DNA of 64,000 bases from a virus, in IMG/VR virus record IMGVR_UViG_3300049460_000134, positions 32,001 to 96,000 of that record; one strand, written 5' to 3'. The notes below the pieces were generated by a model. That model made no database searches and had not been told where the DNA came from. It worked only from the letters and a program-made list of their open reading frames with translations. Positions 19,662-46,383 of this stretch are shown here, one piece after another; positions within the stretch are counted from its first letter, which is position 1; each line of letters begins with the position of its first letter. The position numbers and the translations under genes were made by a program.

Positions 19662-20141
19662 ATGGCAAGAAAAACCCTTGATGAAGCCGAAAAGGCAAGG
19701 CTTCAGCGTATTGCCGACCGCATTTTCGAGAAGGTGAAGGCACTCGACGGCATCTATTACGTCGAAGGCATGCATCAGCTTCCGGTTCTGCGGCACGACA
19801 GTGAATACCGCCAGGCGCCGATCGATAGCTCGATCGAGTTCCTGCTCTCCTCCGTCCGCGTTGGCGGCCGCGGACAAATCATCTTCTGCTTCGAGCCGGC
19901 TGATAACCGTGAATTCAAGCATATTGAGGTCGAACAGCGGAAGATGGACGACGTCTTCCCTCTTTTCGGTCCCGCCTATGCTGAAGCAATCGGCTCCGAG
20001 CAAGAGAACTTCGAGGCTCTGATCAACGAGACGTCCGAGGCGCTCGAGCTTGAGGACGAAGCCGCCGAGATCCGCAAGGCTCAAGAAGCTGAAGAGGCTC
20101 TCGAAAACAATCGCAAACTCCAAAACTACGGGAGATTCTAA
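19662..20141 (+). CDS. Hypothetical protein with C-terminal NYGRF tag
   Basis: ORF ends KLQNYGRF*. Confidence 0.6.
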   Translation: MARKTLDEAEKARLQRIADRIFEKVKALDGIYYVEGMHQLPVLRHDSEYRQAPIDSSIEFLLSSVRVGGRGQIIFCFEPADNREFKHIEVEQRKMDDVFPLFGPAYAEAIGSEQENFEALINETSEALELEDEAAEIRKAQEAEEALENNRKLQNYGRF

Positions 20142-20734
20142 TGGCAAAGATCCGCATTGGCGGTCTCGATGGTTCGCTGCGCAACTTCGGCATAGCGAAG
20201 CTGGACTATGAAACGGACACCGGCGAGCTCGAGCTGGTTGGTCTGAAACTGATCGAGACGGAAAAGACGAAGGCAAAGCAGGTGCGCGCCTCGTCCGATA
20301 CCTATGAGCGCGCCAGGACGCTCGCGACCGAGGCAGACGCCTACCTCGAGGACTGCGATATCATCTTCGCCGAAATCCCGTTCGGCGGTAAATCCTATGA
20401 CGCCGTGCTTGGCTTCGGGATTGTGATTGGCGTCTATGGCGCGCTCTCGCTGAAGACCCCGCTGATCGAGGTCGCTCCGGCTGAGACGAAGAAGGCAGCC
20501 GTCGGCACGCGCACTGCGTCGAAGGAAGAAATGATTGCCTGGGCATTTGAGAAGTTCCCGGATGGTCCGTGGCTGCGACACGCCAAGAACGGCAAGGGCT
20601 ACAGCAAGGGCGATCCGACCAACGCAAACGAACACCTGGCAGACGGCTGCGGCGTTGCCTTTGCAGGTATCAAGACGCCGGCGTTCCGCCAGGCTGCCGC
20701 AATGCTCGCGACTTCGCTCAAGAAGGCAGCATAA
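20141..20734 (+). CDS. RuvC-like Holliday junction resolvase
   Basis: GLDGSLRNFG, AEIP, KKAAVG...ASKEEM, EHLADG. Confidence 0.8.
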   Translation: MAKIRIGGLDGSLRNFGIAKLDYETDTGELELVGLKLIETEKTKAKQVRASSDTYERARTLATEADAYLEDCDIIFAEIPFGGKSYDAVLGFGIVIGVYGALSLKTPLIEVAPAETKKAAVGTRTASKEEMIAWAFEKFPDGPWLRHAKNGKGYSKGDPTNANEHLADGCGVAFAGIKTPAFRQAAAMLATSLKKAA

Positions 20735-20807
20735 TCGTAAAATCAAGCCTGTTTAGTCAGTAAAAACTGACTTACAATGAGCACACCTTTCACTGCAGGA
20801 GCACCGA

Positions 20808-21770
20808 ATGCTTTTCGAACGCCAGGTCGAGCGTCTGCCCGACCATTATCCGTGGACACAGGACTACATCGAAGCCATGCAGGATGGCTTCTGGACCGCA
20901 AAGAAGTTCACTTTCGACACCGACAAGACCGACTATGAGCTCAATCTCAATGAGGCTGAGCGCCAGATGGTCACGCGCTGCCTTGCAGCGATCGCCCAGA
21001 TCGAGGTCTCCGTGAAGGAGTTCTGGAAACGCCTCGGCGATCATCTTCCGCATCCTTCGATTAAGGATCTCGGGATCACGATGGCCTACATCGAGGTCAT
21101 CCATAACAACGCCTACGAAAAGCTCCTGAAGAAGCTCGGTCTGATCGACGTCTTCAAGGACAACATGAGTGTTCCGGCTGTTGCTGGGCGCGTCGGCTAT
21201 CTCAACAAGCACGGCGAGCGCGTCTACAGCGACAACCGCAAGCAATACATCTACAGCCTGATCCTTTTCACGATGTTCGTGGAAAACGTCAGCCTCTTCA
21301 GCCAGTTCTACGTGATCCTCTGGCTCAACCGCTTTCAGAACGTGCTCAAGGATGCTGCGCAGCAGGTGAAATACACGCGCAACGAGGAGCTTCTACACGC
21401 CCAGGCCGGCGCCAAGATCATCATGACGCTCCGCAAGGAATATCCGGAGCTGTTCGATCAGGAAATGGAACGCAAAATCAAGCACGAATGCCACGTCGCG
21501 TTCGGCGCTGAATGCGAACTCATCAACTGGATGATCGGCGATTTCCAGGGCGACAAGCTCAATGCCGAAGTGCTCAAGGGCTACGTTGCTCAGCGCTTCA
21601 ACGAAAGCCTCGAAATGGTCGGCTACGAGCCGGTCTTCCACGTCGACAAGTCCGTCCAGGAGGCGACCTTCTGGATGACCGAGGGGCTCTACGCTCCATC
21701 GAAGGTCGATTTCTTCCACTCTGAACCCACCGAATACGCGCAGGCCGACTCTGCGGACGACGAATTTTAA
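20808..21770 (+). CDS. nrdB: Ribonucleotide reductase class I beta subunit
   Basis: EVIH, VENVSLFSQF and NEELLH di-metal motifs; DFF near C-terminus. Confidence 0.92.
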   Translation: MLFERQVERLPDHYPWTQDYIEAMQDGFWTAKKFTFDTDKTDYELNLNEAERQMVTRCLAAIAQIEVSVKEFWKRLGDHLPHPSIKDLGITMAYIEVIHNNAYEKLLKKLGLIDVFKDNMSVPAVAGRVGYLNKHGERVYSDNRKQYIYSLILFTMFVENVSLFSQFYVILWLNRFQNVLKDAAQQVKYTRNEELLHAQAGAKIIMTLRKEYPELFDQEMERKIKHECHVAFGAECELINWMIGDFQGDKLNAEVLKGYVAQRFNESLEMVGYEPVFHVDKSVQEATFWMTEGLYAPSKVDFFHSEPTEYAQADSADDEF

Positions 21771-21784
21771 AAGGACTGAAGATT

Positions 21785-23467
21785 ATGCGACAAGATTATG
21801 CCTGGCTGAACCAGGTGGCTCTAACTACGCTCTCGCGCGGCTATCTGCGCGAGGGCATCGCGCCTGAGAACCTCAAGGAAGAGGCGATCGCGCGTGTCAA
21901 TGCCATCGTAGATCGTGCAGAAGAAATCCTCGGTTTTGAACTGCCGACGCTGCGCCTGGGCGTCAAGCGCGGTTGGGTCTCACCCGCCTCTCCGATCTGG
22001 TCGAACTTCGGCGCTGGGCGCGGTCTGCCGATTAGCTGCAACGGCAGCTTCATGGCCGACGACATGGACTCCATTCTCTTCAAGAATGCCGAGATTGGCA
22101 TGATGACGAAGGAAGGCGCTGGCACTTCTGTCTATATGGGCAAGCTGCGTCCGTTCGGCTCTGCTATCTCTGGCGGTGGACGCTCGGAAGGTCCGACGCA
22201 TTTCGCTCGGCTGCCGCAGGAACAGGTGACTGTCGTCTCGCAGGGCAACACGCGCCGCGGCAATGCAGCCGTCTACCTCGATATCGAGCATGAAGACGCC
22301 GAGCGCTGGCTGGATATGCGTTCGATCTCTGGTGGCGTGCACCATCCGATCCAGCATCTTTCGTTCGGCGTGGTCATCGGCGACGACTGGATGAACGCGA
22401 TGCTCGCCGAAGAAAAGGGCGGTCCTAAGCGCAAGCTGATGGCGAAGATTCGCAACAAGCGGCGCGAGACTGGCTTTCCCTACATTGTCTTCCGCGACAA
22501 CGCCAACAATGCTCGCCCGGAAGTGCTGAAGCGGCTTGGTCTGCTGATCTATGCCTCGAACCTGTGCACTGAGGTCATGCTGCCGTCCGGTCCCGACGAA
22601 AGCTTCGTCTGTGATCTGTCCTCGGTCAATGCGCTCTATTACCACGAGTGGAAGAGCACGCCGTTCGTCCGCGAAATGATCTACATGCTCGACGCGGTGA
22701 TGACGGAATACATCGAGAAGATCCGCGGTGTCCGGCTGCTCGCTGATGCGCTTCGCTTTGCAGAACGCTGGCGCGCTCTTGGTCTCGGTGTTCTCGGCTG
22801 GCATTCGCTGCTGCAATCGCAGATGATCGCCATCGAAAGCGATGAGGCTCGAGCGCTGAATATCGAAATCAGCGAGTATCTCGCCACCGAGTCACACGCC
22901 GCATCCCGCGACCTCGCCGAACGTCTTGGAGAGCCGGAAGGGCTGAAGGGCACTGGCTACCGCAACCTGACGGTTAATGCGATCGCGCCTACCACATCCT
23001 CGTCGATCATCTGCGGCCAAGTTTCGCAGCAACGCGAGCCTTGGACTGCAAATATCTTCGAGAACGACAATGCCAAGGGCGTTTTCACGCAGCGCAACGT
23101 GTTCCTTGAGGAGCTGCTCGAAAGCAAGGGGCGCAACGACCAGCAGACTTGGCTCTCGATCTTGCAGAATGCCGGCTCCGTGCAACATTTGGACTTCCTG
23201 ACGCAGCACGAGCGCAACGTCTTCAAGACCTTTGCCGAGATCGACCAGGCAGAGCTGATCCGTCAGACTGCGGACTGCCAGAAGTATATCGATCAGGGCA
23301 TCAGTCATAACATCATCCTGCCGCCCGAAGCGACGATGAAGGAAGATATCGATCTGATCGTGTTGGCGTGGAGAAGCGGTTTGAAATCGCTCTACTATCG
23401 CAAGGGCTTGAACAAGGCACAGGAACTGGCTCGCCAGAATGCTTCCTGCGTGGCGTGTGAGGCGTAA
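21785..23467 (+). CDS. nrdA: Ribonucleotide reductase class I alpha subunit (short, no apparent ATP cone)
   Basis: PISC, SNLCTE, AIAPTTSSS, KSLYY, C-terminal CVAC. Confidence 0.92.
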   Translation: MRQDYAWLNQVALTTLSRGYLREGIAPENLKEEAIARVNAIVDRAEEILGFELPTLRLGVKRGWVSPASPIWSNFGAGRGLPISCNGSFMADDMDSILFKNAEIGMMTKEGAGTSVYMGKLRPFGSAISGGGRSEGPTHFARLPQEQVTVVSQGNTRRGNAAVYLDIEHEDAERWLDMRSISGGVHHPIQHLSFGVVIGDDWMNAMLAEEKGGPKRKLMAKIRNKRRETGFPYIVFRDNANNARPEVLKRLGLLIYASNLCTEVMLPSGPDESFVCDLSSVNALYYHEWKSTPFVREMIYMLDAVMTEYIEKIRGVRLLADALRFAERWRALGLGVLGWHSLLQSQMIAIESDEARALNIEISEYLATESHAASRDLAERLGEPEGLKGTGYRNLTVNAIAPTTSSSIICGQVSQQREPWTANIFENDNAKGVFTQRNVFLEELLESKGRNDQQTWLSILQNAGSVQHLDFLTQHERNVFKTFAEIDQAELIRQTADCQKYIDQGISHNIILPPEATMKEDIDLIVLAWRSGLKSLYYRKGLNKAQELARQNASCVACEA

Positions 23468-23468
23468 G

Positions 23469-23711
23469 ATGAGTATTCACGTTCTCATCCGATCCAATCC
23501 ACCCTGTCCTTCCTGCCTCAAGACAAAAGCGCTCCTTGAGCGGCGCGGTCTGGCCTTCACGGCAGAAGATCACGAGACGCCGGAGAAGGTTGAGACCTTC
23601 GTCGCTGCCGGCCATCGCACCTTTCCGCGCGTCTTCATTGACGACAAGCTGATAGGTGGCTTCGAAGATCTCGAACGCCATCTTGCTTCGCTGGAAGATG
23701 ACGATTTCTGA
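23469..23711 (+). CDS. Glutaredoxin
   Basis: CPSC, TFPRVFI, IGGF. Confidence 0.88.
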   Translation: MSIHVLIRSNPPCPSCLKTKALLERRGLAFTAEDHETPEKVETFVAAGHRTFPRVFIDDKLIGGFEDLERHLASLEDDDF

Positions 23712-23920
23712 GAAATAGCGCTTGCGTCCCAATCGCGCATCGTTATAAATGCTCTTGTAAGTAAATACTGACTGACACGAAAGCGATGTGTCAGTCAGTT
23801 CCAGCGATCGAAGATCAACCGCTCTACGAGGTGTCGCCTTATGAACCGCTAAGTCGGGTTTATCAGTCAAAATTGATTAAGAAAAAGACGTCGCCAGGAG
23901 CCGTCAGAAAATAAACCTGG

Positions 23921-24028
23921 CTCTTATGTGAGTGGAGCGCGAAGGCTGAGCTAAAGGCCTGTTGTATTCGCGATGCAGCGAAACGAGAAAACCGGATTCT
24001 CGCGTAGCGGGCTCCGCTCACATAAGAG
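23921..24028 (+). ncRNA. Candidate structured RNA (18-bp closing stem enclosing three hairpins)
   Basis: ctcttatgtgagtggagc (23921-23938) pairs with gctccgctcacataagag (24011-24028). Confidence 0.5.
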
Positions 24029-24099
24029 ACCTGACGAGGACTGCGGTGAAGTCTCTCGCTTACAAGCGTGGCTAGGGTTCGAGTCCCTTAAGGGTCGCC
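24028..24099 (+). tRNA. Degenerate tRNA-like element (TAC, Val-like anticodon loop)
   Basis: T-arm GGGTTCGAGTCCC, cgcTTACAAgcg arm, partial acceptor stem gacct/gggtc; loop sizes imperfect and no CCA. Confidence 0.4.
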
Positions 24100-24126
24100 T
24101 GTTCAACACCTACTGAGGAGAAGCGC

Positions 24127-25086
24127 ATGTCTGCCACCATTCTTGCATTCAAGCCGCGTTCTAAGCCAGAGCCGGAGTCCGTAAAGCAGCCGGCGCCTAA
24201 CCAGCTCGAGATTTCAAAGTTTGAGTGCGATCACCTCGACCGCGTGATTGATCGCGCCGTCCATGTGCTTGACGTCATCCACTCTGGTCCGGCGCTCATC
24301 AAGCAGTTCCTCGCCGGCCAGCGCACGATCGCCTCCACCGTCAAGCACGGCGGCGTCGAATACGAGCTGCAGATCAGCCTCGTCGAAAAGCATTCCCCTC
24401 GCTTCGCATAATAGGAGATTCCATTGCGAAACTTTCTTTCTCGCCTTTTCCGCCGCAACCAGACGATCGTCACGAACGTCTCGGTCAATCACCAGGTCAA
24501 CGTGATCCGTGATGACGCCGACTATATCGACGCGCTCGAAAACCGGATCGCCGATCTCCTGGTCGCCAACACCGACTACGTGATGCGCCTTCAGGCTCGC
24601 GGCATTCGCGTCAAGGAGCTCGAGACGGAAAACGCCGAGCTGCGCGCACAGATCCCTGTTGCGGCATAACGCACATGGGGCTTTCGGCTAACGGGAAGCC
24701 TATAACGCCCTACCAAGGCTCGTGGGCATGGAAAATGGAGCAGCGCCGCAAGCTCGGCGCGCTTCGCGAGCAAGAAACCACCCTCTTCATCAATGGCAAC
24801 AATCGCGAGGCTGCAGAGCGTCGCGACGAAGCCGCAGATCTCGAAAGGAGCTTACATGGCGGACAGACGCCTAACGACTGAAGACAGGCATACGCCGAAG
24901 TTGAAGCAGATCGCCGGTCTCATCCAGGGACTGACCTTCCGCGAAATGCAGCATATCTCGGAATTGCTGAGGGATGAGCTGCAAGTGAGCGGCTCAATGC
25001 CTGTTACCGATGCGCTGCTAAAAGTTGCCGACAATCTTCTCGGCTTCGACACGCAGACCGGAATTCCCTTTCGTTCCGCTTCCTGA
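24127..25086 (+). CDS. Four small hypothetical ORFs
   Basis: ORFs 24127-24411, 24424-24669, 24675-24881 and about 24856-25086, most with SD sites. Confidence 0.45.
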
Positions 25087-25105
25087 AACAATAAGGACAC
25101 CTCCT

Positions 25106-26101
25106 TTGACCTTTCTCATCAATGACCCTGTGACGAAGATCACCGGCGACTACAGCTTCGACGGCACGGTCGTCGCAGCATTCGACAAGCAGGACGGCAA
25201 GCAACGCTACGTCGTCGAGGACGATCGCGGCGCGCTGCATATCTACAGCGAACAGAACCTCCGGCTGATCGGCAACATGGCTGATCACCAGTATCTGCGT
25301 GTCCTCAAGAAGCTGCTCGACAAGGGCGTCTATCGCGAAGGTCGCAACGGCGGCACTTATGGTCTCTTCGGCGAACAGATGCGCTTCGACCTCTCTCGCG
25401 GCTTCCCGCTGCTGACGACCAAGAAGGTTCACTTCCACTCCATCGTCGTTGAATTGCTCTGGTTCCTCCGCGGCGAGACGAACATCAAGTTTCTGAAGGA
25501 CCATAACGTCTCGATCTGGGATGAATGGGCTGACGAGAAGGGTGATCTTGGTCCGGTCTACGGCGCGCAGTGGCGCACCTGGCCGACGATCGAGCATCAG
25601 TGCGCCGATATCTACTATCCCGGCCACATCGACCAGATCCAGAAGGTGATCGACGGCCTCAAGCGCGATTCATACGGTCGCCGGCACATCGTCTCGGCAT
25701 GGAATCCGGCTGAGATCGATGAAATGGCGCTTCCGCCCTGTCACTGCCTCTTCCAGTTCTTCGTGTCTGACAACAAGCTGAGCTGCCAACTCTACCAGAG
25801 GAGCGCAGATTGGTTTTTGGGGGTCCCATTCAACGTTGCCTCATACGCGCTGCTGACCATGCTGATTGCGCGCGAAACCGGCCTTCAGCTTGGCGAATTC
25901 GTGCATAGCTTCGGCGATCTGCACCTCTACGCCAATCACATCGAGCAGGCCAAGGAGCAGCTCACTCGCGAGCCGCGCAAGTTGCCGAAGGTGCTCATCA
26001 ATCCGGACATCGACAAGCACATCTTCGACCTGGAAGTCGGTGACGTCGCTCTCGTCAACTACGATCCCCATCCAGCGATCAAAGCGCCGGTCTCAGCGTA
26101 A
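25106..26101 (+). CDS. thyA: Thymidylate synthase with N-terminal DfrB-like SH3 domain
   Basis: [30 protein letters not shown]; about 57 extra N-terminal residues in frame after AAGGA SD plus TTG. Confidence 0.93.
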
Positions 26102-26185
26102 GATATCCACGCGCAACCCAACATTTCTTGCGCTATTGTGTCAGTAACAATTGACTGATAGCGCGAGCAAAGATAAGGACGATCC

Positions 26186-26389
26186 ATGTCAGAAAAGATC
26201 GACATTCACATCGACCACTACATCGCCCAGGAAGGCGGTGTTGGCTTCTACTATTCGGTGATGCCATCGACTGAGCTGTTTGGACCGTTCGAAACTGCAC
26301 AACTCGCCGCTGAAGGTGCTCTCGCAGCGCTTCAAGGGGCGATGGACGACATTGTAATGGCCGCACTCGGCATCGAAAAAGGAGAGTAA
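26186..26389 (+). CDS. Hypothetical protein
   Basis: SD plus ATG downstream of a promoter/operator. Confidence 0.5.
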   Translation: MSEKIDIHIDHYIAQEGGVGFYYSVMPSTELFGPFETAQLAAEGALAALQGAMDDIVMAALGIEKGE

Positions 26390-26391
26390 AC

Positions 26392-26859
26392 ATGGGCGGC
26401 ACGCTCATTGAACAGACCAAGGTTATCGTGAGCAAGGTTCACGAGAAGGCATTCATTCCGACATACGGATCTGACGAGGCGGCCGGCGCTGACCTTTACG
26501 CTGTTGTCGATGGTCCGGACGCTATCCCGGTTCCGGTCGGCGAGCGCGTGCTCGTCAAGACCGGCTTGTCGATCGAGCTCCTGCCTGGCTACGAAGCCCA
26601 GGTGCGTCCTCGTTCCGGTCTGGCACTGAAGCAGGGCATCACGGTCCTCAACACGCCTGGCACGATCGACAGCGACTATCGCGGCGAGGTTGGCGTCATC
26701 CTTTATAACGCTGGCAACCGGACGTATTTCGTCAACCACGGCGATCGCATCGCTCAGTTGGTGATTGCGCCTGTCGTGCGCGGTGTCTTCGTTGTCGGCG
26801 AACTCAGCGACAGTAACCGCGGCGAAGGTGGCTTTGGCTCGACTGGAGTTTCCGCCTAA
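26392..26859 (+). CDS. dut: Trimeric dUTPase
   Basis: AGADL, RPRSGLA, GTIDSDYRGE, RGEGGFGSTG. Confidence 0.96.
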   Translation: MGGTLIEQTKVIVSKVHEKAFIPTYGSDEAAGADLYAVVDGPDAIPVPVGERVLVKTGLSIELLPGYEAQVRPRSGLALKQGITVLNTPGTIDSDYRGEVGVILYNAGNRTYFVNHGDRIAQLVIAPVVRGVFVVGELSDSNRGEGGFGSTGVSA

Positions 26860-27479
26860 TGCTCTACGGCATCTGCGGTGCTCATCGCAGTGGAAAAACC
26901 ACACTTGCCAAGCGCGTCGCGGAAGAACTTGGTATCGAGTTCATCGATACCTCGTTCGGCTCCATCAGCAAGGGCAAACGCAATCCGGTCGCTCCCATGA
27001 CTCTCAGGGAGCGGCTCGACATTCAGGTTCACGGCCTGGAACGCCACCTGGAGCTCATCCTTCAGGCAAGCCGGCCGGCAATCGTCGATCGCACGCCGCT
27101 CGACATGTTCGGCTATCTCCTCGCAGAATTTCACATGACCTCCGATCGCCATGCTGATGCGGACGTCCTGGAAGGAGCTGCCTACCTCGCCGAGCAATAC
27201 CTCGAGGCTGTGAAGCTCAACTACGACATGGTCTTCTTCACGGAGATCCTGCCGGTCTACGAGGTCGATACCTCGAAGCCGACGCCGCCAAACAATCGTG
27301 CCTTCCAGCTTCACCTGGACGCGATCATCCGCGGCGGTCTGCATCGGCTCCATGACGAGATCAACCATGCCGTTGTGCCAGCGATACCGCTTGCGGAGCG
27401 CGTGGAACAGGTCTCGGAACTGATCGTGGAGCGGATGAACGAAATCGACGACCAGCGCAAAGCCGTCGGATTCCACTAA
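26859..27479 (+). CDS. P-loop nucleotide kinase-like (AAA_28 type) protein
   Basis: GAHRSGKTT, VDRTPLD. Confidence 0.7.
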   Translation: MLYGICGAHRSGKTTLAKRVAEELGIEFIDTSFGSISKGKRNPVAPMTLRERLDIQVHGLERHLELILQASRPAIVDRTPLDMFGYLLAEFHMTSDRHADADVLEGAAYLAEQYLEAVKLNYDMVFFTEILPVYEVDTSKPTPPNNRAFQLHLDAIIRGGLHRLHDEINHAVVPAIPLAERVEQVSELIVERMNEIDDQRKAVGFH

Positions 27480-27575
27480 GCCACACGAAAAAGCCACGCG
27501 CATCCCAACTGCGCGTGAGCTATTCAGTAATTATTGACTGACAACAAACAAGAACAGACACAAGGAGACAGAAGC

Positions 27576-31279: not shown

Positions 31280-31429
31280 CATGACGCGCATTGAAGCTCG
31301 CATCCAACGCAATCGAGTGATCGCCAGGTTCCTTTTCGTGGCGGCACTCATCGCTCTCGCAGCCGACTTCGCTCAGCAAGCCGGCCTCATCCCTCACCTC
31401 GAGCCTGCACCGCTCACACGGAGTATCAA

Positions 31430-31837: not shown

Positions 31838-32490
31838 ACACTGAACGCAAATCCAATTACATGCACACTTCGAACGGCAAGAAATACTGGCCGCTCGATC
31901 CGCGCCCTGAAGAAGTCCACCTCGAGGTCGTGGCGCACCACCTGGCAACGCGTGCTCGCTACAACGGCGCAACGCAGCATCCGGTCTTCAAGTCGCGCAT
32001 CCTTTTCTCGGTGGCTGAACACTCGGTTTTGGTGTCTCGCTTCATCGAGGAAGAGCTTGGTCGCCCTGATCTGGCGCTCGAAGGTCTCATGCACGACGGC
32101 TCCGAAGCGTTCAACGGCGATCTCATCCGGCCGCTGAAGTATGACGACAGCTTCCGTGCGCCATTCCAGCGCGTCGAGGTTCTGAACGAGAAGGCCAATG
32201 CTCTGCGCTTCGGTCTGGTCTATCCCTATCCGGAAGAGATCAAGATCGCCGACGAGGCTGTTACCGCGGCTGAAGTCAATCAGATCATCGTCAAGGCGCC
32301 TGAAGATGACTGGAGCTTCGGCAAGCTGCATGACGACACGCGCGTCGCGCCATACGAGATCGAAATGCTCCTGCCCTACGAGGCCAAGGTGCTCTTCCTC
32401 GATCGCTTCTATGAATTGGCTCGTCGGCGGAAGGTTGAGGGATATGAAAGATATTTCGACGCCTCGCTTGCATCCCAATCTGCTGCGTGA
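31834..32490 (+). CDS. HD-domain 5'-deoxynucleotidase (YfbR-like)
   Basis: RYNG, SVAEHSV, LMHDGSEA, PLK, KIAD. Confidence 0.8.
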   Translation: MNTERKSNYMHTSNGKKYWPLDPRPEEVHLEVVAHHLATRARYNGATQHPVFKSRILFSVAEHSVLVSRFIEEELGRPDLALEGLMHDGSEAFNGDLIRPLKYDDSFRAPFQRVEVLNEKANALRFGLVYPYPEEIKIADEAVTAAEVNQIIVKAPEDDWSFGKLHDDTRVAPYEIEMLLPYEAKVLFLDRFYELARRRKVEGYERYFDASLASQSAA

Positions 32491-34584: not shown

Positions 34585-34677
34585 CATATCCACCCGAACC
34601 CCTGCGTGCGCTTCGCTATAACGTATTTGTAAACGAAAACAACGCGCTAGCGAAGCGCACAGCAAGGAGCTTTTGAA

Positions 34678-35493: not shown

Positions 35494-35569
35494 GCGACGG
35501 CTCATTCACCGGAGCGGCGGCGCGTCCCAGGCGCGCTGCCACCATCAACCACCCCTGAAAGGAAAGATC

Positions 35570-35833
35570 ATGAAGAAACTCGCAGTAGCGGGTGTGGCTG
35601 TTCTCGTCTCATCGTGCAGCAGCCTATTGCCATCCTACGACTACGCCAAGGTGCGGTCGAACGAATACAAGATGACTGACCATCCGTGGAAATCGGCGAA
35701 AGACTGCGTTCGCAAGGAGCCGAAAGGCAAGTTCGACGCGCGCTGTGACATTCCGGTCGTTGGCTATCGTGGCGACGGCGACATCACACCTCACTTCGGC
35801 GTCGGCTCCAGCGCTGGCGGCTTCAGCTTCTAA
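35570..35833 (+). CDS. Putative small lipoprotein
   Basis: MKK, hydrophobic stretch, then SSC lipobox-like site. Confidence 0.5.
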   Translation: MKKLAVAGVAVLVSSCSSLLPSYDYAKVRSNEYKMTDHPWKSAKDCVRKEPKGKFDARCDIPVVGYRGDGDITPHFGVGSSAGGFSF

Positions 35834-35844
35834 GGAGCACGACA

Positions 35845-36963: not shown

Positions 36964-36978
36964 AAGAATAGCGATAAC

Positions 36979-37004
36979 AATGGCGGGCTCGAAAACCCGC
37001 CATT
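36979..37004. terminator. Intrinsic terminator
   Basis: aatggcggg/cccgccatt stem. Confidence 0.6.
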
Positions 37005-38314: not shown

Positions 38315-38737
38315 ATGCCAACTAGGAAGATGATCTACAAGGCGCTCGAAGCGCTGCCCCACCAAGAGCGGGATGTCGAACGTATATTCGAGGTCATCCG
38401 TGATGTGATCGAGCGCTCTCCCGGCTCGGTCGAAGAGCTATTTCCAGGCATGGCGCTCGTTCCACGGCAGTTGTCGCGGAAGGAAATCTCGACCAAGGCA
38501 GCCAAGGCGTCTGTCGAACGGCGCCAGCGCCAGACCGACGAGCGATACAACGAGATTGTGCCGCATCTGCGGCGCTGGCTCGAGGAGGATCCAGAGATCA
38601 CGCTCTCGAAGATCCGCCAGAAACTGACCGACATGGGCTTGAAGCCACTCCGGTCTGACAAGTGGAACCGCGCTTCCATCCTCTTCATGCTGAAAAAGGC
38701 AGGACTACGAAACGACGATGAACAGAAAGAGACTTGA
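38315..38737 (+). CDS. Recombinase-associated HTH-like protein
   Basis: TLSKIRQKLTDMGLKPLRSDKWNRASI pattern. Confidence 0.45.
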   Translation: MPTRKMIYKALEALPHQERDVERIFEVIRDVIERSPGSVEELFPGMALVPRQLSRKEISTKAAKASVERRQRQTDERYNEIVPHLRRWLEEDPEITLSKIRQKLTDMGLKPLRSDKWNRASILFMLKKAGLRNDDEQKET

Positions 38738-39248
38738 GTTCGCAGCCGAGAAGTTCCTGCTCTCTATGGGGCAGGAGTTTCTCAAGGCCAATCCAGACGC
38801 CACCTCCCCTATCAAGAAGCTCGCCGACTACTCTCCTGAGCAGCGCTCACTGCTGATGAGGGCGGTCGGCCATACCATTAAGGCGTCGCTGCCAGCGGCC
38901 GACGGCGAGTTCCAGGCCTGGCTAGATCGCCAGCGCCAGGCCGCCGAGTAATCGTTTGCGGCAATGTGTCAGTAAAAATTGATTGACGATATCCGCACGA
39001 CCGGCTAGGCGTGCGGTCAACCAGGAGAAACAAATGTTCGCCATTTTGAAAGGTATCGCCGAGCGGCAGAAGAAGGACGACGACAGGCAAGCCGTCTTGC
39101 GCTTCCGTTCCGGCGCCGTATCGCATGTCGAGGAGTGGATCGAGGTCCGCACCAATCTTGTCAAAGTCGTTGTCAACTACAGCCAGAAGTCCACGGAAGT
39201 CTCGTTCCTGCCGGAAGCCGTCGAATCCGTCGAATACAGGTGGCGATA

Positions 39249-39494
39249 ATGGCTCTACCGCTCGCGAACGCCAACCTCCCTATCTTGCCCCTCGATCGTG
39301 AGAGTGATTGGTCCAAGGGCATCAACTTCCTCACCGAGCATCGCTATGGCCTGAGCGTCATGAGGCCAAACATCTACGGCAGCGCCGGCGCCGACAGCTT
39401 CGAGATCCGCCAGGCCAAGAAGACCGCCGACAAACTGAGCGAGGAAGAGCTCGCTGAGCGTCGCAAAGATCAGCCGAACTTCGCCAAGTTCTAA
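39249..39494 (+). CDS. Hypothetical protein with C-terminal PNFAKF variant tag
   Basis: ORF ends DQPNFAKF*. Confidence 0.5.
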   Translation: MALPLANANLPILPLDRESDWSKGINFLTEHRYGLSVMRPNIYGSAGADSFEIRQAKKTADKLSEEELAERRKDQPNFAKF

Positions 39495-39571
39495 TACGCA
39501 CTATCCGCGCGCTTCCCTGCGTGCGCTGTGCGATAAGTAATTATTGACTGACAAATCAAGGAGATAGTCGA

Positions 39572-40159
39572 ATGCACTATAGCAGTGTCGGCATGATCGC
39601 GATCCAACAGGCCAAACTGTTTGCGATCGCCGCCCACGCAGCCGTCGGCCAGAAGCGCAAATACGGCGGTGAGGACTACATCACGCATCCGGTGCGCGTC
39701 GCTGAAATGGTCAAGCAGCTCCGTGGCCACACCTGGGAAATGGTGGCGGTAGCACTCCTGCATGACGTCGTCGAAGACACCGCGATCGACCATGAGCTGA
39801 TTGCCGACCTGTTCGGCACCACAGTCGGCGGCATGGTTCGCTCGTTGACGAACATCGACAAGGCGGCCGGCAACAGCAAGCACCGGCTCGAGCTCGATAT
39901 CCAGCGCCTGAAGATGGCGACGCCCGAGACGAAGACCATCAAGGTCGCGGACATCTACGACAACCTCTACAACCTGGTCGAGCTCGACTTCCGCCACGCA
40001 CGCTACTTCGTGCCGAAGGTCAAGCGGATCATGCTTGAGGCTCTGCACGACTGCAGCGACGCCTGCCTCTGGGGTCTAACGATGATCCGCGTCAACGACA
40101 TGGAAGCTCAGATCGCCAAGATCGAGGCGGGGCAGCAGGAGGCGAAACTTGCCAGCTAA
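39572..40159 (+). CDS. Small alarmone hydrolase (RelA/SpoT HD, Mesh1-like)
   Basis: AH..QKRK..EDYITHP, LLHDVVEDT, IKVADIYDN. Confidence 0.82.
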   Translation: MHYSSVGMIAIQQAKLFAIAAHAAVGQKRKYGGEDYITHPVRVAEMVKQLRGHTWEMVAVALLHDVVEDTAIDHELIADLFGTTVGGMVRSLTNIDKAAGNSKHRLELDIQRLKMATPETKTIKVADIYDNLYNLVELDFRHARYFVPKVKRIMLEALHDCSDACLWGLTMIRVNDMEAQIAKIEAGQQEAKLAS

Positions 40160-41226
40160 CATCCTGAAGACCATGCCGGTGATCACTCGTTGGACCCAAT
40201 GCACGCTTTGCGACCATGTTCAGATGGACGTGATCGTATGCGTCGAGCCGACCGCCGTCGCCGAAATGGAATGCGGTCATACCTATGCGGACGGTCGCGA
40301 GATCTCTGCCAACCGCGCCTTTGACGCCGACGTGCGCCAGATCATCGAGCACGCATGAAGAAGCAGCGGAACAAGATGCGCGCAAACCAGAAGAAAGCGC
40401 GCGAGAAACAGACACAGCGAGTCACCAGCGCGCGCCGTGAGCTTCCGAGGTCTCAGAGTGCGTCGCGCGACCGGATGCTCGCTATGAACGCTGCTATGAG
40501 CGGTCACTCATTGGCTGCAGGCCTTGGCGCCGTCGCTCTCGCCCAGGCTATGTTCTGGGGAAAAAGGAAGGCCGATGTTTCTTAAGGTCGAGAAACCAAG
40601 CTCCACGCTCTACGCCGCGCACGAAGCGGAGAAGGAACGGATCATTGCCGCCGCGATCTTCTTCGGCGGCATTGTCTCGCTTCCACCGCCGGCCAGGCAC
40701 CATACCATCATTCAGACGATGGATCGCGGCATGCACCTCGACGGCGCGGCTGTCTTGCCGCAGATGCAAGGCTTCATCACCAGCACAGGCCGCTACGTCA
40801 ACCGCGTCGAGGCCTACTACCTCGCATATAGCGCCGGTCAGCTCATCAGCGAGACCAAAGGACCGGAGCTCTACTCGGAGGATTTGTGGTGATCCACACT
40901 GAAGTTCTGCGAAAGGGCGAGGCACGCTTCAACATGGTTGGTCAGAGGCTGCCGGACAGCCTTCACGACACCGACCAGGAGATTTCCCCTGGTCTGGCCT
41001 ATCGCCTCTATCGGTATTGCTACGTGCGCCTCACCGAGAATGGCTTCAATCTGGAGGGCTGGAAGGTCCACGTCTACACGATGGACGGCGATCTGCCACG
41101 CTCCGATCGGTATTACTGCGTCGAGTTCGTCCACCAGAAGGGCGGCATGATCGGCTTGCAAGGGATTCTAATCGGCAAGGGTGGCTGGCCTACCCTCGAT
41201 CACGGCGTCAGCACAGGAGAAGGATA

Positions 41227-41511
41227 TTGAGCCTACCTGTTCTTCCGACCGGCTGGGAATGGATCGAGGGGATATCGACGAACGGCGACATCTACCTCGC
41301 CTTTAGAGGCAGGCCAGCGGTTGACTTGGAGGTAGGCATTTTCGTCTGCGGCCTTGGTATGAACCACTGGCGCGTCATCGAGCGCCCATCGCGCATCATT
41401 CTCGGCAAGAAACGCATGAAAGAGATCCGTAACGACATCCAGCTCGGCAAATACACGATCGCCGACCTTGTGCCGGCGCCAGCAACGCAGAAGAATTGGG
41501 GAAGATTTTGA
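41227..41511 (+). CDS. Hypothetical protein with C-terminal NWGRF tag
   Basis: ORF ends TQKNWGRF*. Confidence 0.5.
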   Translation: MSLPVLPTGWEWIEGISTNGDIYLAFRGRPAVDLEVGIFVCGLGMNHWRVIERPSRIILGKKRMKEIRNDIQLGKYTIADLVPAPATQKNWGRF

Positions 41512-41855
41512 GCGACAACGAACACCTTTCCGAGCGCACCGACCGAATCCGCCAGCTCAACGACCAGCTCCGGCGCACAGGCAAGGGCGGTCAGATCGTC
41601 GCGACAGGCGCGCTCACTCAGGCCGATCCAGAGCTGATCTACCAGGCTTCCGTCCAGGTGCGCGACTATGCGGCTTTCGACACTGGCGATGATCCTTATG
41701 GCGAGCATGACTTCGGCTCGTTCGTGATCGGCGGTCAGAAATTCCATTGGAAGATCGACTATTACGATCGGAGCATGGAGTTCGGCGCTGACGATCCGGC
41801 TGATTCCGCCAATTGCGTTCGCGTGCTCTCTATCTTCTACGCCGAGGACTACTGA
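41508..41855 (+). CDS. DUF3768 family protein
   Basis: IRQLNDQLR, DPYGEHDFG, WKIDYYD. Confidence 0.8.
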   Translation: MSDNEHLSERTDRIRQLNDQLRRTGKGGQIVATGALTQADPELIYQASVQVRDYAAFDTGDDPYGEHDFGSFVIGGQKFHWKIDYYDRSMEFGADDPADSANCVRVLSIFYAEDY

Positions 41856-42184
41856 TGAATCGGCACGACTCCCTTATCGCCTCGAGCCAGTGCGACAACA
41901 TCATCGCCCTCCTCTTCTTCGAGGATACGGACGAGGTGATTAAGGTCGTCGAGCCGAGCTACCGGATCGACCTGATTGATCCGATTTCGAATGTGACGCA
42001 CCGGTCGAAGCGCTTCAACGCCAAGGACGACACCGACGCCAAGCGAAAGTTCCGGATAGTCTGCCAGCAGGCCGTCACGACAACCTTTCAGGAGGCAGTC
42101 GCTGAAATCGCGCCGGAGCCTGAGCCGCAAATCCAGGAACCAAGCGCTCCTGCCCCTAAGCCTGCCCAATGGGGACGCTTCTGA
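41855..42184 (+). CDS. Hypothetical protein with C-terminal QWGRF tag
   Basis: Pro-rich linker then PAQWGRF*. Confidence 0.55.
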   Translation: MNRHDSLIASSQCDNIIALLFFEDTDEVIKVVEPSYRIDLIDPISNVTHRSKRFNAKDDTDAKRKFRIVCQQAVTTTFQEAVAEIAPEPEPQIQEPSAPAPKPAQWGRF

Positions 42185-42510
42185 TGGCGATCCGCGTGGT
42201 CCAAGAGGTGACTGATAGAGGCTATCGCTTCACCTGGGAGGAAGAGACCAAGGAGATCGAAACTGCCTCTCACGGTCGCGTGATCGTCGTTAAGGGCTGG
42301 CAAGCAGTTGTCGAGGCGCAGAAAGGCGACATTGTCAGCACGACTGATATCTTTCCCCTACCCGACAAGTTCACGGCGACCCAGGCTGAGTTTGTGAAGC
42401 TGACCAACACCTATCCTGCCTACAGATATGAGGCAGGGCAATTTCCGACGGTCATCATCAAGAAGCCACCCAAGGACTACGAAAAACTCCCCAATTACGG
42501 CCGCTTTTAG
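42184..42510 (+). CDS. Hypothetical protein with C-terminal LPNYGRF tag
   Basis: ORF ends YEKLPNYGRF*. Confidence 0.55.
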   Translation: MAIRVVQEVTDRGYRFTWEEETKEIETASHGRVIVVKGWQAVVEAQKGDIVSTTDIFPLPDKFTATQAEFVKLTNTYPAYRYEAGQFPTVIIKKPPKDYEKLPNYGRF

Positions 42511-43455
42511 CCACGCGTAACCCAACGGGCGCTATGCGAAAACAATCATGTCAACAGCAACAAAGAGGTTACATGAGCAATCGCATTAAGCTTCCGAAGC
42601 GCGTCAAGCAGGCACTCGAACAGGTCGGGAGCTACAGGCTCGAGCAGGGTGGGAAGCATGTTCGGATCTACGTTAACGAAGTGCTGGCAGGAATCGTGCC
42701 ACATGGAGTGCGAGGCGACGGCGAGATCCCTGGACGCGCGATGCTGAACGTGGTCTCCCAGATTCGAAGAGCAGGAAGGGCGGTGACATGCTGACAAGAA
42801 TTGGCGTTTGGGTCTGGCGACTGATGAAGCTCGGCGTGGCTCTTGGCGCGATAGCTGCCGTAAGAGAGGTAGGCAACAATGCCGTCTATCACTTTTCGGG
42901 CCCCGAGAGTTCACCAAGCAATTGGGTGCTCGTGCGGCAGCTCGAAAGCGGCATTCAGGTGCTCGATACCTCAACCGGTCGGCTCTGCTTTATCCTGAAT
43001 GACCCTAAACTGTTCGCGCCTGACTGCTCTCGGACGGCGGTGACGAAGTGACCGAGACAGAAGACTTCAACGAGAAGGAGACGAAGCGGAAAGTGCTCGT
43101 GCGCAACGAGCAGCGGAAGCTTCGTGCCAGCTTTGGGAACACCATAGGCGGTGGCGTCGTTTCTGTCGGAACCGCCGGTCCTGTTGTAGCCTGGTTTGCA
43201 GGCACTATATCTCAGCTACCGGTCCTAGGAATCATGATTTGGTTCTGCATCGGCGTTGTGATACACAGTTTGGCAATGGACGTCTTAGAAGGGATGGAAA
43301 TCTGATGGACTTCAACCAGGCCTATACTACGACCGGCGTTGTCGTTCTCGCTGCGCTTTGCGGCGTGCTCTTCTATCGGAAGCTGGCGCGCGCGAACTGG
43401 AACGTGATGGAAGCGCTCAACAGCTTCATCCATATGACGCGCATCTGATTTTGCC

Positions 43456-43480
43456 AAGGGCGCTTGACGGCGCCCTTTTT
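43456..43480 (+). terminator. Intrinsic terminator
   Basis: aagggcgc/gcgccctt stem plus T-tract. Confidence 0.7.
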
Positions 43481-43624
43481 CGGCTCTAGTTGTGTCAGTA
43501 AATCCTGACTGACTCCTGACATATCCACCCGAACTCCTGTCTCAGACATGCGATAACAAATCATCGAAAGAGACGACGCATGTCCGCATGCGTCAGTAAA
43601 CACTGACTGACAAGAGGATTTGGC

Positions 43625-44134
43625 ATGACTGAACACATCATAAACGAGCAGCGCATCGACGTTCCGGATGACATGACGGTCGTCCTCGAGACAGGCTTCG
43701 CCGGAGCATTCGATCACATTCGCTACCGCGGCGTCGAGATCTGCACCTACGAGCAGGATGACGACCAGGCTTACACCAGCGGATTTGCTGTCTGCATCAA
43801 TGGCGACCCCGAGCATGTGAATGAGCTCGCCGAAGCGCGCACCATGATCGACGCCTACCACGCGGAAATGCTCCTGGCGTTCACTTGCAAAGACTGCGCG
43901 GTCAACACCTCGGCGATCGGCGAATATTACATGGTGACTGACGACCTCTGGGCGAAAGCAGGCATGGCGCCTGACGGCGGCATGCTGTGCATCGGCTGCC
44001 TGGAGACGCGGATCGGCCGGCAGCTCATTGCAAAGGACTTTCCGGACTATCCGGTCAACGCGATCGGCTTCTCTTCCAAATCGGAACGCCTCATGTCGCG
44101 CATCACATGCGCCGAAGTCCTCGAGGCTGCGTGA
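43625..44134 (+). CDS. Hypothetical protein with C-terminal Zn-finger-like domain
   Basis: CKDC...YYMV..DLW...LCIGCLETRIGR. Confidence 0.55.
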   Translation: MTEHIINEQRIDVPDDMTVVLETGFAGAFDHIRYRGVEICTYEQDDDQAYTSGFAVCINGDPEHVNELAEARTMIDAYHAEMLLAFTCKDCAVNTSAIGEYYMVTDDLWAKAGMAPDGGMLCIGCLETRIGRQLIAKDFPDYPVNAIGFSSKSERLMSRITCAEVLEAA

Positions 44135-44923
44135 TGGTGCGTTGGTTCGGCTCGAGACCAACCAATCCAGCCTCCGAGGCTGATAAGATCGACGTTCTGC
44201 TGCTGGCTCGGCGGGACGAAGGCGTGAAGATCGCCGCAAACAATCATGGCGTGGTCGAGCTGCTGTTTCAGCTCGGCATGCTCAAGCACAAAGGTAAACA
44301 GACGGTTCGTGCCACAAAGGCAGGCCGCGCATACTTGGAGAGATTCGAATGGGCGCGCTAGGTCGCATCAGCAAGAAAATGCATAAGCACACCGCCAAGA
44401 TCGACTCGCTACGGATGGGCTCGACTCCGAAAGATCCGCCACGGCGCAAGGAGCTGTTCATGCCGGCTGGATACCAGCCTGGCGAGCTGAACATCGTGCC
44501 GACGCCAGGCATGAGAAGCAACCGCATGTCGATGTCTGTTGGCGATCATGCGCGTCATGGGAGCCAGATCGTGCTCGTTGACATGGAGATCGCCAGGCAT
44601 GACCTAGACGAGCGCATGGCCGGCTACGACGCCGAGATCATCTACGTCGATGAGCTGGAACAGGTCGTGCCACCACACGGACAGAAATATCCGAAACATG
44701 CCCTGGCGCGCAAAGGCTCGATCTTCCAAGGCATCTGCAATCGCACGGCATGCGACAACGTCGACGCGCGCTTCTACAACAAGGGCACGTTTGGCTACTA
44801 TTGCACGTCATGCGGCTGGGCAATCAACGGGCGCAAGACCGGCGACGAGCGGCTCTGCATCGAGGTCGATCACAACCTCACCCATGACGAAATGAACCAG
44901 CTCTACAGAGGACACACGTTCGC

Positions 44924-45124
44924 ATGAGAGAGCACGCCGACGGCACACGCATTCGCCTGATTGAAATGACGGACCCTTATCCGGCCCCGGTCGGCACAGA
45001 AGGCACGATCACCGGCTACGAGCCGAGCATCGGCTATCTGAACGAGGCCTACCACGTCAATTGGGACAACGGCAGCAGACTCAAGGTGCTGGTCGATGTC
45101 GATCACTGGGAGGTCATCGAATGA
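44924..45124 (+). CDS. DUF4314 family protein
   Basis: GTRIRLIEMTDPY..PVGTEGT...VNWDNGS. Confidence 0.75.
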   Translation: MREHADGTRIRLIEMTDPYPAPVGTEGTITGYEPSIGYLNEAYHVNWDNGSRLKVLVDVDHWEVIE

Positions 45125-45503
45125 CGGTTAGCGATCAGCTCATCAAGGATCTCACGTTCTCGCTGGCATGCGGCCATGACGAAGGCTACATCAGAAATCA
45201 GGCCTGGAGCCTTCACTGGCGACTTAAGGTGCGTCGCATCGAGGACAAGGCGCGCGATAACGTCTTCTCGATCGCTACCATCGCTCTCCGCGAGAACCTG
45301 TGCGGCCGCGGACACTTCACGGCGCTGATCCGGCACCTGGTCGAGCATCCAACGATCGCCGGCCGGTCCCTGGACTGGCTTTACATCGAGCAGTGCCGCT
45401 TCAGGCTCGGTGAGCATTTGCGCCGCGAGCTCGGCTTCAAAATCGACGACGGCATGGTCATAGACGCCTGGCGCCGCACGACCTCGCAGATGGAGCTCGG
45501 CCT

Positions 45504-45857
45504 ATGAGCGCAATAGCGGCGCCACCACGCGATCCAGATGGCCTCTGGCATGAGGTCGCAACCAAGTTCAACGGCAAGCATTGGTATGTCCTGCTCGAAG
45601 GCAGAGGCCGCAATCGAAACCTGGCTTCGATCAACCGCCACATCGAAGGCGAGTGGGAAATGTTCGAACACGGCGCCTATGCCGATATCGAAGTGGTTTG
45701 GCTCAGCCTGAAGGACGTCAACGCGCCGGTCGTGGTTGCGGCGAAGCCGGAGATCGAATGGGAAGAGGCTGGCGATTTGCTGGATGAGGCTGAGATCATT
45801 CCAGCCGAGCCGCCGGTCGATCCATACGCCGCCCTGCCGAACTACGGGAGATTCTGA
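45504..45857 (+). CDS. Hypothetical protein with C-terminal LPNYGRF tag
   Basis: ORF ends YAALPNYGRF*. Confidence 0.55.
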   Translation: MSAIAAPPRDPDGLWHEVATKFNGKHWYVLLEGRGRNRNLASINRHIEGEWEMFEHGAYADIEVVWLSLKDVNAPVVVAAKPEIEWEEAGDLLDEAEIIPAEPPVDPYAALPNYGRF

Positions 45858-46075
45858 TGGGTGAGGACGACTATGATCTGCTCGATCGCGGCTGCACCTG
45901 TCACACAAGTCATCCACCCTGCAGCTTTTGCACGGAGCTCGGCGAGGATGAGATCGAGGTTTATCATGACGGCGGCGCCGAGGCTGTGCGCGATCGGCGT
46001 ATCGCTCTGGAGAATGGCGAGACCTGGCCGCCACCGTCGCCATACGCCGACAATCCGGATTATGGGAGGTTCTGA
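45857..46075 (+). CDS. Cys/His-rich small protein with C-terminal PDYGRF tag
   Basis: CTCH..PPCSFC; ends YADNPDYGRF*. Confidence 0.55.
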   Translation: MGEDDYDLLDRGCTCHTSHPPCSFCTELGEDEIEVYHDGGAEAVRDRRIALENGETWPPPSPYADNPDYGRF

Positions 46076-46383
46076 TGATTGAATCCGGTGTTGGTCCAGA
46101 GTCCTGGCGCAAGATCTATCCGTCGTCTGAGTGGGAGACCTACAGGCGGCATCAGTTTCCAGCCGGCGACCGGCTCGTCATGGTCCGGCACAAGGAGAGC
46201 ATGCGCGCCGCGGTGCTGTCGTTCTTTCACAAGGAAGGCGATCTGCATTGGATTGTCCATTGGGACGGTCACTCGATGGGCACGCTGACCTGCTTTGAAC
46301 AGATGGTCGCGCGTGGTGTCACCGCCATGGACTCTGCGCCTGCCGCCGAATACGCGGAACTGCCTAATTTCGGCAGGTTCTAG
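46075..46383 (+). CDS. Hypothetical protein with C-terminal LPNFGRF tag
   Basis: ORF ends YAELPNFGRF*. Confidence 0.55.
   Translation: MIESGVGPESWRKIYPSSEWETYRRHQFPAGDRLVMVRHKESMRAAVLSFFHKEGDLHWIVHWDGHSMGTLTCFEQMVARGVTAMDSAPAAEYAELPNFGRF

Follow-up and report, generated by a model that had tools for sequence, protein, structure and literature searches.

Replisomes of bacteria and phages owe their organisation to short C-terminal address peptides, as seen in the SSB tip, the clamp-binding motifs and the tails of T4 and T7 proteins. The SSB tip (D-D-D-I-P-F) and the acidic, Phe-ended tails of T7 gp2.5 and gp4 present a terminal aromatic residue and a free carboxylate after a disordered linker, and organise replication and repair proteins. 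The tails of T4 gp43, gp55 and gp33 on gp45, the bacterial QL[SD]LF peptide and the archaeal C-terminal PCNA-interacting peptide (PIP) are short hydrophobic or aromatic tails read by a ring-shaped hub on DNA, and in T4 several unrelated proteins of one phage carry such a tail. The chemoreceptor peptide NWETF (xWxxF), read by CheR and CheB, serves purely as an enzyme tether. Here we describe a C-terminal peptide, hereafter the tag, that ends unrelated proteins encoded in IMG/VR record IMGVR_UViG_3300049460_000134, an RHEph10-like Rhizobium phage-plasmid. The 64,000-nt stretch analysed (the window) corresponds to positions 32001 to 96000 of this 115,555-bp single-contig phage genome, and coordinates below are those of the window unless the genome is named. 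No published description of the tag was found for the literal motifs, for the related phages or among papers on shared motifs, and it thus appears to be undescribed.

The nearest relatives of the genome are Rhizobium phages RHEph10, RHph_Y2_11 and RHph_N1_10 (DnaE 78% identical), followed by RHph_X66 and B1VFA (DnaE 66%). More distant are DnaE-encoding siphophages of about 105-120 kb, namely Stenotrophomonas ANB28, Xanthomonas JGB6, Pseudomonas nickie and the SSU5-type phage-plasmids of Klebsiella, Salmonella and E. coli. The lineage has in common one set of replication and recombination genes (PhoH, DnaB-like helicase, primase, ATP-dependent ligase, CobT, CobS, DnaE, gp32-like SSB, 5'-3' exonuclease, RecA-like protein, SbcD, SbcC, RuvC-like resolvase and ribonucleotide reductase, RNR), whose order is kept throughout, as well as a capsid protein conserved at 49-57% identity. 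A first-pass annotation, made from the letters of the window, had listed eight open reading frames (ORFs) sharing the tag; all eight lie on the + strand, with the ends and terminal residues that it gave. A C-terminus scan of the whole genome brought the number to ten, the extra two lying just before the window:

19662 to 20141, + strand: tagged protein A, 159 residues from ATG 19662, ending KLQNYGRF, between the SbcC-like exonuclease and the RuvC-like resolvase.
39249 to 39494, + strand: tagged ORFan of 81 residues from ATG 39249 (alternative GTG 39135), ending DQPNFAKF, the sole Ala/Lys variant; no coupled start, no Pfam or PHROG match.
41227 to 41511, + strand: tagged ORFan of 94 residues from TTG 41227, preceded by GGAGAAGGA (alternative start 41017), ending TQKNWGRF; no coupled start.
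41855 to 42184, + strand: tagged ORFan of 109 residues with a Pro-rich linker, ending PAQWGRF; its stop overlaps the next ATG.
42184 to 42510, + strand: tagged ORFan of 108 residues, ending YEKLPNYGRF (GGC CGC TTT TAG); no coupled start.
45504 to 45857, + strand: tagged protein of 117 residues, ending PYAALPNYGRF, with tagged body relatives in RHEph10, RHph_Y2_11 and RHph_N1_10.
45857 to 46075, + strand: tagged protein of 72 residues, ending PYADNPDYGRF; the RHph_N1_10 orthologue ends PYHDNPNFGRF.
46075 to 46383, + strand: tagged ORFan of 102 residues, ending EYAELPNFGRF (GGC AGG TTC TAG); no coupled start.
Genome 23927 to 24487: WGR-domain tagged protein (whole-genome C-terminus scan, Pfam WGR).
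Ending at genome 24762: 73-residue tagged neighbour of the WGR protein (whole-genome C-terminus scan).

The bodies of these proteins are indeed unrelated, since removal of the last 12 residues left the ten carriers in ten separate BLASTP clusters (E<1e-3); searches of Pfam and PHROGs with the eight window carriers matched no family. The position of the peptide is just as marked. The three + frames of the whole genome contain 13 copies of [YFW][GA][RK]F, of which 10 are terminal, and the minus frames contain four, none of them at a stop. Enrichment was calculated against a deliberately generous null, in which the motif is placed at random over all ORFs of at least 40 residues in six frames, with the pattern [YFW]G.[FW]([ASG])-COOH. 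Nine terminal copies were observed in this genome against 0.77 expected (P=1e-7), and the nine genomes of the lineage hold 6-11 terminal copies each against 0.5-0.9 expected (P 3e-5 to 6e-10). The first-pass annotation had named a lack of C-terminal enrichment in relatives as what would overturn its proposal, and the eight relatives proved to resemble this genome. The form of the tag and the number of carriers in each clade are as follows:

RHEph10-like phages: Y-x-x-[NH]-P-N-[FY]-G-R-F, with 10, 7, 6 and 8 carriers per genome; the form in the genome studied here is (Y-x-x-[NHL])-P-N-[FYW]-G-R-F.
RHph_X66 and B1VFA: [FY]-G-[AGRTK]-F, with 7 and 9 carriers.
ANB28 and JGB6: P-E-x-Y-G-x-W, with 10 carriers in ANB28 (eight of them in consecutive ORFs) and 6-8 in JGB6.
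Nickie: [FWY]-G-x-[WF], often followed by A, S or G (F-G-x-W-[AS]), with 10 carriers.
Klebsiella SSU5-like phage-plasmid pJN2-26: W-A-T-W, in two proteins only.

The conserved core of the tag is thus aromatic-G-x-aromatic-COOH with an invariant Gly, and the Arg is a clade-specific detail. Carriers are built of a domain, then a spacer that is usually helical or rich in Pro, Glu and Ala, and then a terminal peptide of 6-11 residues with two aromatics. C-terminal motif counts found no carriers in four unrelated Rhizobium and Sinorhizobium phages (RHEph01, RHEph04, RHEph08 and NV1.1.1), nor any carrier of the aromatic tag in CRP-810 and T5S1, phages with only CobS and CobT in common with the lineage, and a strict DNA pattern searched in IMG/VR gave matches almost confined to this lineage. 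These results show that the tag is specific to the phage lineage and not to the host.

It is the peptide that is under selection. Each of the four Gly codons occurs among the carriers (GGA 27, GGG 23, GGC 15 and GGT 8), and a start codon overlaps the stop in 39 of 77, the other half being uncoupled; it follows that the conserved entity is the amino-acid sequence. Within the genome studied here the codon triplets GGG AGA TTC, GGC CGC TTT, GGC AGG TTC and GGA CGC TTC were all confirmed, together with GGA AGA TTT and GCC AAG TTC. Carriers lacking a coupled downstream start, put at three beforehand, number four of the eight in the window (ends 39494, 41511, 42510 and 46383), while the remaining four end in TAATG or TGATG with GGGAGA, GGGAGG or GGACGC as a possible Shine-Dalgarno (SD) sequence. 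Over the ten carriers of the genome five overlap an ATG, for which GGGAGA or GGGAGG can double as SD, and five do not. Relatives also hold variants free of any SD (GGC GCC TTC, GGT GGT TGG), so that the earlier proposal of a tag kept as peptide, and not as a by-product of an overlapping SD, stands. Clustering by body divides the 67 carriers of the eight genomes compared into 38 groups, and only RHEph10 has two carriers in one group. The tag is therefore a lineage-wide, terminal, peptide-level feature.

Every carrier with a recognisable domain handles DNA, the domains being WGR, BRCT and serine recombinase. The WGR carrier matches Pfam at E 2.6e-14, and its AlphaFold2 model, confident to the terminus (pLDDT of the last ten residues 83), matches the WGR domains of PARP1, PARP2 and PARP3; BRCT occurs in two adjacent carriers of ANB28. 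The first-pass annotation had proposed a docking signal shared by diverse effectors: its peptide-level, terminal nature and the unrelated bodies hold good, whereas the carriers that can be identified are DNA-handling modules and not generic effectors.

Two carriers can be followed across the lineage. Orthologues of protein A keep the tag in all six Rhizobium phages, and a homologue search with this protein returned two matches only. In pJN2-26 the two W-A-T-W proteins sit in the SbcC-RuvC gap (gene 0005, ending VWATW) and in the primase-ligase gap, the positions of protein A and of the WGR protein, respectively. The nickie genes at both gaps are also tagged, the one in the SbcC-RuvC gap ending TDFGGWA. 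Because the same two gene positions are tagged in nickie and pJN2-26, the two carriers are shown to be ancient core genes, while others come and go: for five of the ten carriers found here the other genomes compared hold no relative with a tag, and a post-DnaE protein tagged in RHph_X66 and B1VFA is untagged here. When IMG/VR was scanned with aligned ligases, 79 loci were recovered, a scan with the single ligase protein having given no matches; in 56 of the 79 the ligase is preceded by a tagged ORF. This ORF is mostly a WGR-type protein of about 175 residues that ends about 600 nt before the ligase, with tails such as NPNFGRF, NPLFGAF and NENWGSW; in an alignment of 37 such proteins the tag Gly is the sole invariant column.

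Tagged proteins also occur outside the lineage. A chromosomal Resolvase-family serine recombinase with the same extended tag (Y-x-x-H-P-N-[FY]-G-R-F) is present in Sinorhizobium sp. 8-89 and in Rhizobiales bacterium AFS003181 (quoted end DYQHHPNFGRF); in one of these two genomes a C5-methyltransferase gene and a Vsr-like gene are found close to it. In Mesorhizobium, two small proteins with the tag are encoded next to genes for prophage tails. No more than one or two such ends occur in any of the four rhizobial genomes that encode tagged proteins, and the tag is therefore not a general feature of host proteins. A scan of a genome collection for P-N-[FY]-G-R-F-stop gave 47 matches, mostly chance singles in unrelated phyla; three matches in Amylibacter lie in ORFs of 7-12 codons.

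Set beside the systems described above, the tag resembles NWETF most in shape: it is a free C-terminal five-residue peptide after a flexible linker, with an aromatic residue at -3 from the terminal Phe or other aromatic and often Asn or Asp just before it. It differs in its middle, which is an invariant Gly and a free position instead of acidic residues, Ser or Thr, and in its carriers, which are phage DNA-handling proteins and ORFans with no link to CheR or CheB; Pfam found no MCP domain on the carriers, these being WGR, BRCT, resolvase or ORFan proteins. It shares with the SSB and T7 tails the terminal aromatic and free carboxylate after a disordered linker, but here many clients carry the tail and not the hub, the peptide is not acidic and its Gly is invariant. 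The tag is not found on SSB either, the gp32-like SSB of the phage ending DLDNL. As with the clamp tails, unrelated proteins of one phage bear one short hydrophobic or aromatic tail; the pattern differs, however, no phage clamp gene was found and DnaE already has its own hexapeptide QLELLP.

Since the anatomy of the tag and its many-to-one logic match those of the SSB tip, the T4 clamp tails and NWETF, we lean, on balance, towards taking it for a docking motif, recognised by a single partner that is linked to the replication or repair of DNA; both the existence of one reader and its identity are inferred. The tag has been gained and lost on many unrelated proteins of one old DnaE/CobST siphophage-plasmid lineage of about 105-120 kb (the supergroup of RHEph10, RHph_X66, nickie, ANB28 and SSU5), and on this model one reader would grip all carriers by the tail through two aromatic pockets. 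The tail would thereby tie the WGR nick or break sensor, the BRCT modules and the SbcC-RuvC gap protein to one replication/repair-associated machine, to which a changing set of small accessory proteins would also be docked.

The leading single candidate for this reader, put forward tentatively, is the phage pair formed by CobT, with its vWA domain, and CobS, of the MoxR type. Their genes open the window and precede that of the polymerase, in an order (CobT-CobS-DnaE) kept across the lineage:

1 to 1248, + strand: C-terminal half of a CobT-like protein, with a vWA domain bearing the metal ion-dependent adhesion site (MIDAS) residues DCSGSM...GFTT...SDG (Pfam CobT_C/VWA); candidate reader.
2042 to 3349, + strand: CobS-like MoxR-type AAA+ ATPase, partner of CobT (Pfam AAA_5 and CbbQ_C); candidate motor of the reader.
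4589 to 8098, + strand: phage DnaE (Pol III alpha), with the clamp-binding-type hexapeptide QLELLP at residue 967.

The pair is characteristic of the lineage. The MIDAS residues (DxSGS...T...SDG) are intact in the CobT of all lineage members, and CobS of this type is confined to the same phage supergroup, the cobaviruses and a few others. Peptide capture by vWA/MIDAS proteins working with MoxR ATPases is exemplified by RavA-ViaA, CbbQ-CbbO and NorQ-NorD, to which the lineage is alike in encoding a MoxR/vWA pair with an intact MIDAS. vWA MIDAS sites have been described as binding extended peptides (PMC7159879), capture of a substrate peptide by vWA and its release by MoxR have been proposed for other systems, and some vWA-MoxR systems are accompanied by conserved small C-terminal peptides (Kaur et al. 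2020, PMC7159879). The arrangement here differs from those of Kaur et al. (2020) in that the tagged genes do not adjoin cobT or cobS, there is no peptidase and the motifs are others. The MIDAS site of CobT might capture the aromatic-G-x-aromatic-COOH tails of DNA-bound sensors and small accessory proteins, and CobS, encoded next to DnaE, might then load, remodel or strip the tagged proteins at sites of replication or repair. That the tag is a client address of the phage's own CobT/CobS machine is a possibility, and a somewhat doubtful one. A family of small proteins lies among the corresponding genes of another phage. Cobavirus T5S1 (T5S1-k141_653015, Cobavirinae), otherwise unrelated and with only CobS and CobT in common, encodes at about 4.0-15.0 kb some 16 small proteins of 60-74 residues interleaved with cobS, cobT and the DNA polymerase gene. 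They have MK(L)(Y)D starts and a common C-terminal tail, [VIL]-P-x-E-F-[LF]-x, and are probably a very divergent paralogue family.

It is rather doubtful that the reader is another phage replication or repair protein, such as the ligase, the gp32-like SSB, DnaE, the RecA-like or the DnaB-like protein. We also considered p188 (genome 24762-25328), the gene between the tagged WGR gene and the ligase, which always directly precedes the ligase of the lineage and has remote homologues in ANB28, JGB6 and pJN2-26. Among the IMG/VR ligase loci 53 have both p188 and the tag, 3 the tag only, 2 p188 only and 21 neither, a co-occurrence that is largely a matter of shared synteny. We do not claim p188 as the reader because it is absent from the four rhizobial genomes that hold tagged proteins. 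A complex prediction with p188 and the last 62 residues of the WGR protein, both as alignments and run without controls, scored 0.00 and says nothing either way. The N-terminal domain of p188 (about 140 residues) is Cys-rich (NQFxFxCPIF...GCQACM...KCP) and modelled by AlphaFold2 with pLDDT >95, and no PDB fold match was found for it (Foldseek E>1; best VIA, Z 3.2).

A second short motif is shared by p188 and a protein of the SbcCD module. The 115-residue protein encoded between SbcD and SbcC (15661-16008) is an apparent 'paralogue' of p188, alike at least in the C-terminal motif AAxTGD[LI]AAAI. More generally, [IV]-N-x-A-A-x-[ST]-G-[DN]-[LIM]-x-A-A-[IL]-[NT] lies 3-6 residues from the C-terminus of differing proteins in all six Rhizobium phages; its carriers include the SbcD-SbcC protein and p188, and it is internal in rIIB of relatives. 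The primase-ligase and the SbcCD modules each hold one carrier of this AAxTGD-type motif and one of the aromatic tag.

Several observations weigh against a single docking partner, and against CobT/CobS as that partner. The tagged serine recombinase and the small proteins beside prophage tail genes belong to rhizobial chromosomes, in genomes without the p188 family; this suggests a reader encoded by the host, or borne on several kinds of mobile element, and not one private to the lineage. The motif varies by clade, with an F or W end, an extra A, S or G in nickie and Ala for Gly in the SSU5-like element, and a pocket anchored on the free carboxylate would have to tolerate this variation. The tagged genes are scattered, none adjoining cobT or cobS, and CRP-810, a second phage with CobS and CobT, has no recurrent tail. 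Lastly, a shared degron would give identical sequence statistics.

That last alternative, with a host or a phage protease as reader, survives best, and we judge it unlikely. The exposed aromatic C-terminus would be recognised by a host AAA+ protease (ClpXP, ClpAP, Lon, FtsH or HslUV) or an adaptor, and replication-accessory and host-takeover proteins would be short-lived, which would suit an element that stays quiet as a plasmid. In favour, the tag stands free at the C-terminus behind a spacer, on proteins that are early or accessory, and phage proteins for replication and recombination are well known to bear protease tags (lambda O, MuA). To our knowledge, however, the tag matches none of the signals described for ClpX, ClpA, Lon, FtsH or HslU; it ends in F or W, and not in the L/V-A-A-COOH of an ssrA-like ClpX degron. 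Host proteases are highly conserved, yet the motif differs within one host genus (GRF vs GAF) and is absent from four other rhizobiophages. RHEph10-like phages do encode an HslV-family peptidase, but no ORF of the corresponding region matched it in ANB28 or nickie, so that a homologue is not recorded in these two tagged phages, and we set it aside as a reader.

The same rhizobiophages have a second strong C-terminal bias, towards Ala-Ala, which resembles ssrA-type ClpX signals and counts in favour of the degron reading. Over the whole genome 25 of 330 ORFs of at least 100 residues end in Ala-Ala against 3.5 expected (in the window, for example, those ending at 8687, 11185, 13053, 29912 and 51473). 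Such ends number 26 in RHEph10, 26 in RHph_X66 and 23 against 2.4 expected in the unrelated Sinorhizobium phage NV1.1.1, and only 1-2 in ANB28, nickie and pJN2-26. They include many core enzymes (ligase, FEN, RecA, SbcC, RuvC, DnaQ and UvsW) whose gamma-proteobacterial orthologues are not AA-ended. The bias might reflect an ssrA/ClpX-like signal in alphaproteobacterial hosts or, in part, the influence of SD sequences (GAG GCN GCN).

Still less likely is a variant binding peptide for the beta sliding clamp, or for some other DNA hub of the host, by which DNA proteins of phages and other mobile elements would ride the host replication machinery. All identifiable carriers are DNA-transaction proteins, including the chromosomal resolvase outside the phage lineage, and shared C-terminal clamp tails, those of the T4 gp45 clients, are the classic phage precedent. 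The shape of the tag, [NQ-like]-hydrophobic-small-x-aromatic-COOH, also loosely recalls QLGLF, the C-terminus of E. coli Pol II. Counted position by position, however, its residues do not fit the beta-clamp motif (QL[SD]LF or QLxLxL): the tag has no Gln, the position of the clamp-motif Leu varies (R, A, G, T, D, E, V or S) and the spacing of the aromatics (i, i+3) suits neither the penta- nor the hexapeptide class. The motif moreover differs between phages of one host genus. The phage DnaE keeps a canonical hexapeptide in all eight genomes compared, QLELLP being replaced in relatives by QIELLP, QLELMP or QKELLP, in agreement with the hexapeptide beta-clamp-binding consensus. Since no phage clamp gene was found, the phage polymerase probably uses the host clamp, as judged from its sequence, and since DnaE carries its own QLELLP the tag is not the motif used by this polymerase. 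A hidden phage clamp was sought in the 271-residue conserved protein after DnaQ, which has no clamp-like neighbour in the ESM Atlas; neither this protein nor the 178-residue post-DnaE protein gave a significant PDB sequence match.

We regard as very improbable that the tag is a capsid-loading signal, which would bind the procapsid interior or a scaffold and thereby bring anti-defence proteins and binders of DNA ends or nicks into the particle, to be injected along with the DNA. Encapsulins, which have the HK97 fold, do take up their cargo by C-terminal peptides on flexible linkers, the carriers include many small accessory proteins encoded in arrays (the eight in a row in ANB28) and the capsid protein is conserved across the lineage. 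Yet the capsid protein changes little and the motif much, and the tag pattern differs from an encapsulin-type cargo-loading peptide (G-S-L-x-I-G-S-L-K-like). The major capsid protein is untagged, the head-gene region of this genome (about 100-112 kb) has no tagged ORF, the ancient carriers belong to replication and recombination operons and a chromosomal serine recombinase bears the same tag; a virion proteome of any lineage member was not found in the literature.

The weakest explanation, a by-product of nucleotide constraint (an SD with an overlapping next start, or a conserved recombination joint at gene ends), is scarcely credible and largely refuted by the codon and coupling data: five of the ten carriers here do end GG(G/A)(A/C)G(A/G/C)TTCT(A/G)ATG, and GGA and GGG are the commonest Gly codons, but a downstream start is coupled to only half of the carriers, each position is encoded by differing codons, with TTC GGC GCC TTC and TAT GGT GGT TGG lacking an SD, and the conserved upstream Y-x-x-x-P-N lies outside any SD.

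Two further observations concern neighbouring genes. A 149-residue protein (18722-19171) encoded directly after the SbcC-like gene has a weak match to Lar (restriction alleviation), at Pfam E 5.7e-6 and just below the gathering score. Class I RNR beta subunits bind alpha via an acidic Phe-ended tail. In four RHEph10-like phages RNR beta (20808-21770) ends SADDEF and the glutaredoxin (23439-23711) ends LEDDDF, so that the glutaredoxin seems to mimic the tail of RNR beta.

In a widespread supergroup of large phage-plasmids, 6-11 proteins per genome bear the tag; the supergroup's SSU5-type members in Klebsiella, Salmonella and E. coli probably carry it on two core proteins. The tag gives a handle on dozens of ORFans, as its reader defines what they have in common, and on the docking model it would show how phages bring modules that sense DNA lesions (WGR, BRCT) in trans onto one machine. 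If CobT and CobS do read it, this would provide a function for the long-unexplained cobS and cobT genes of SSU5-type phage-plasmids and cobaviruses, and would add a new client-tag system for MoxR-vWA chaperones.

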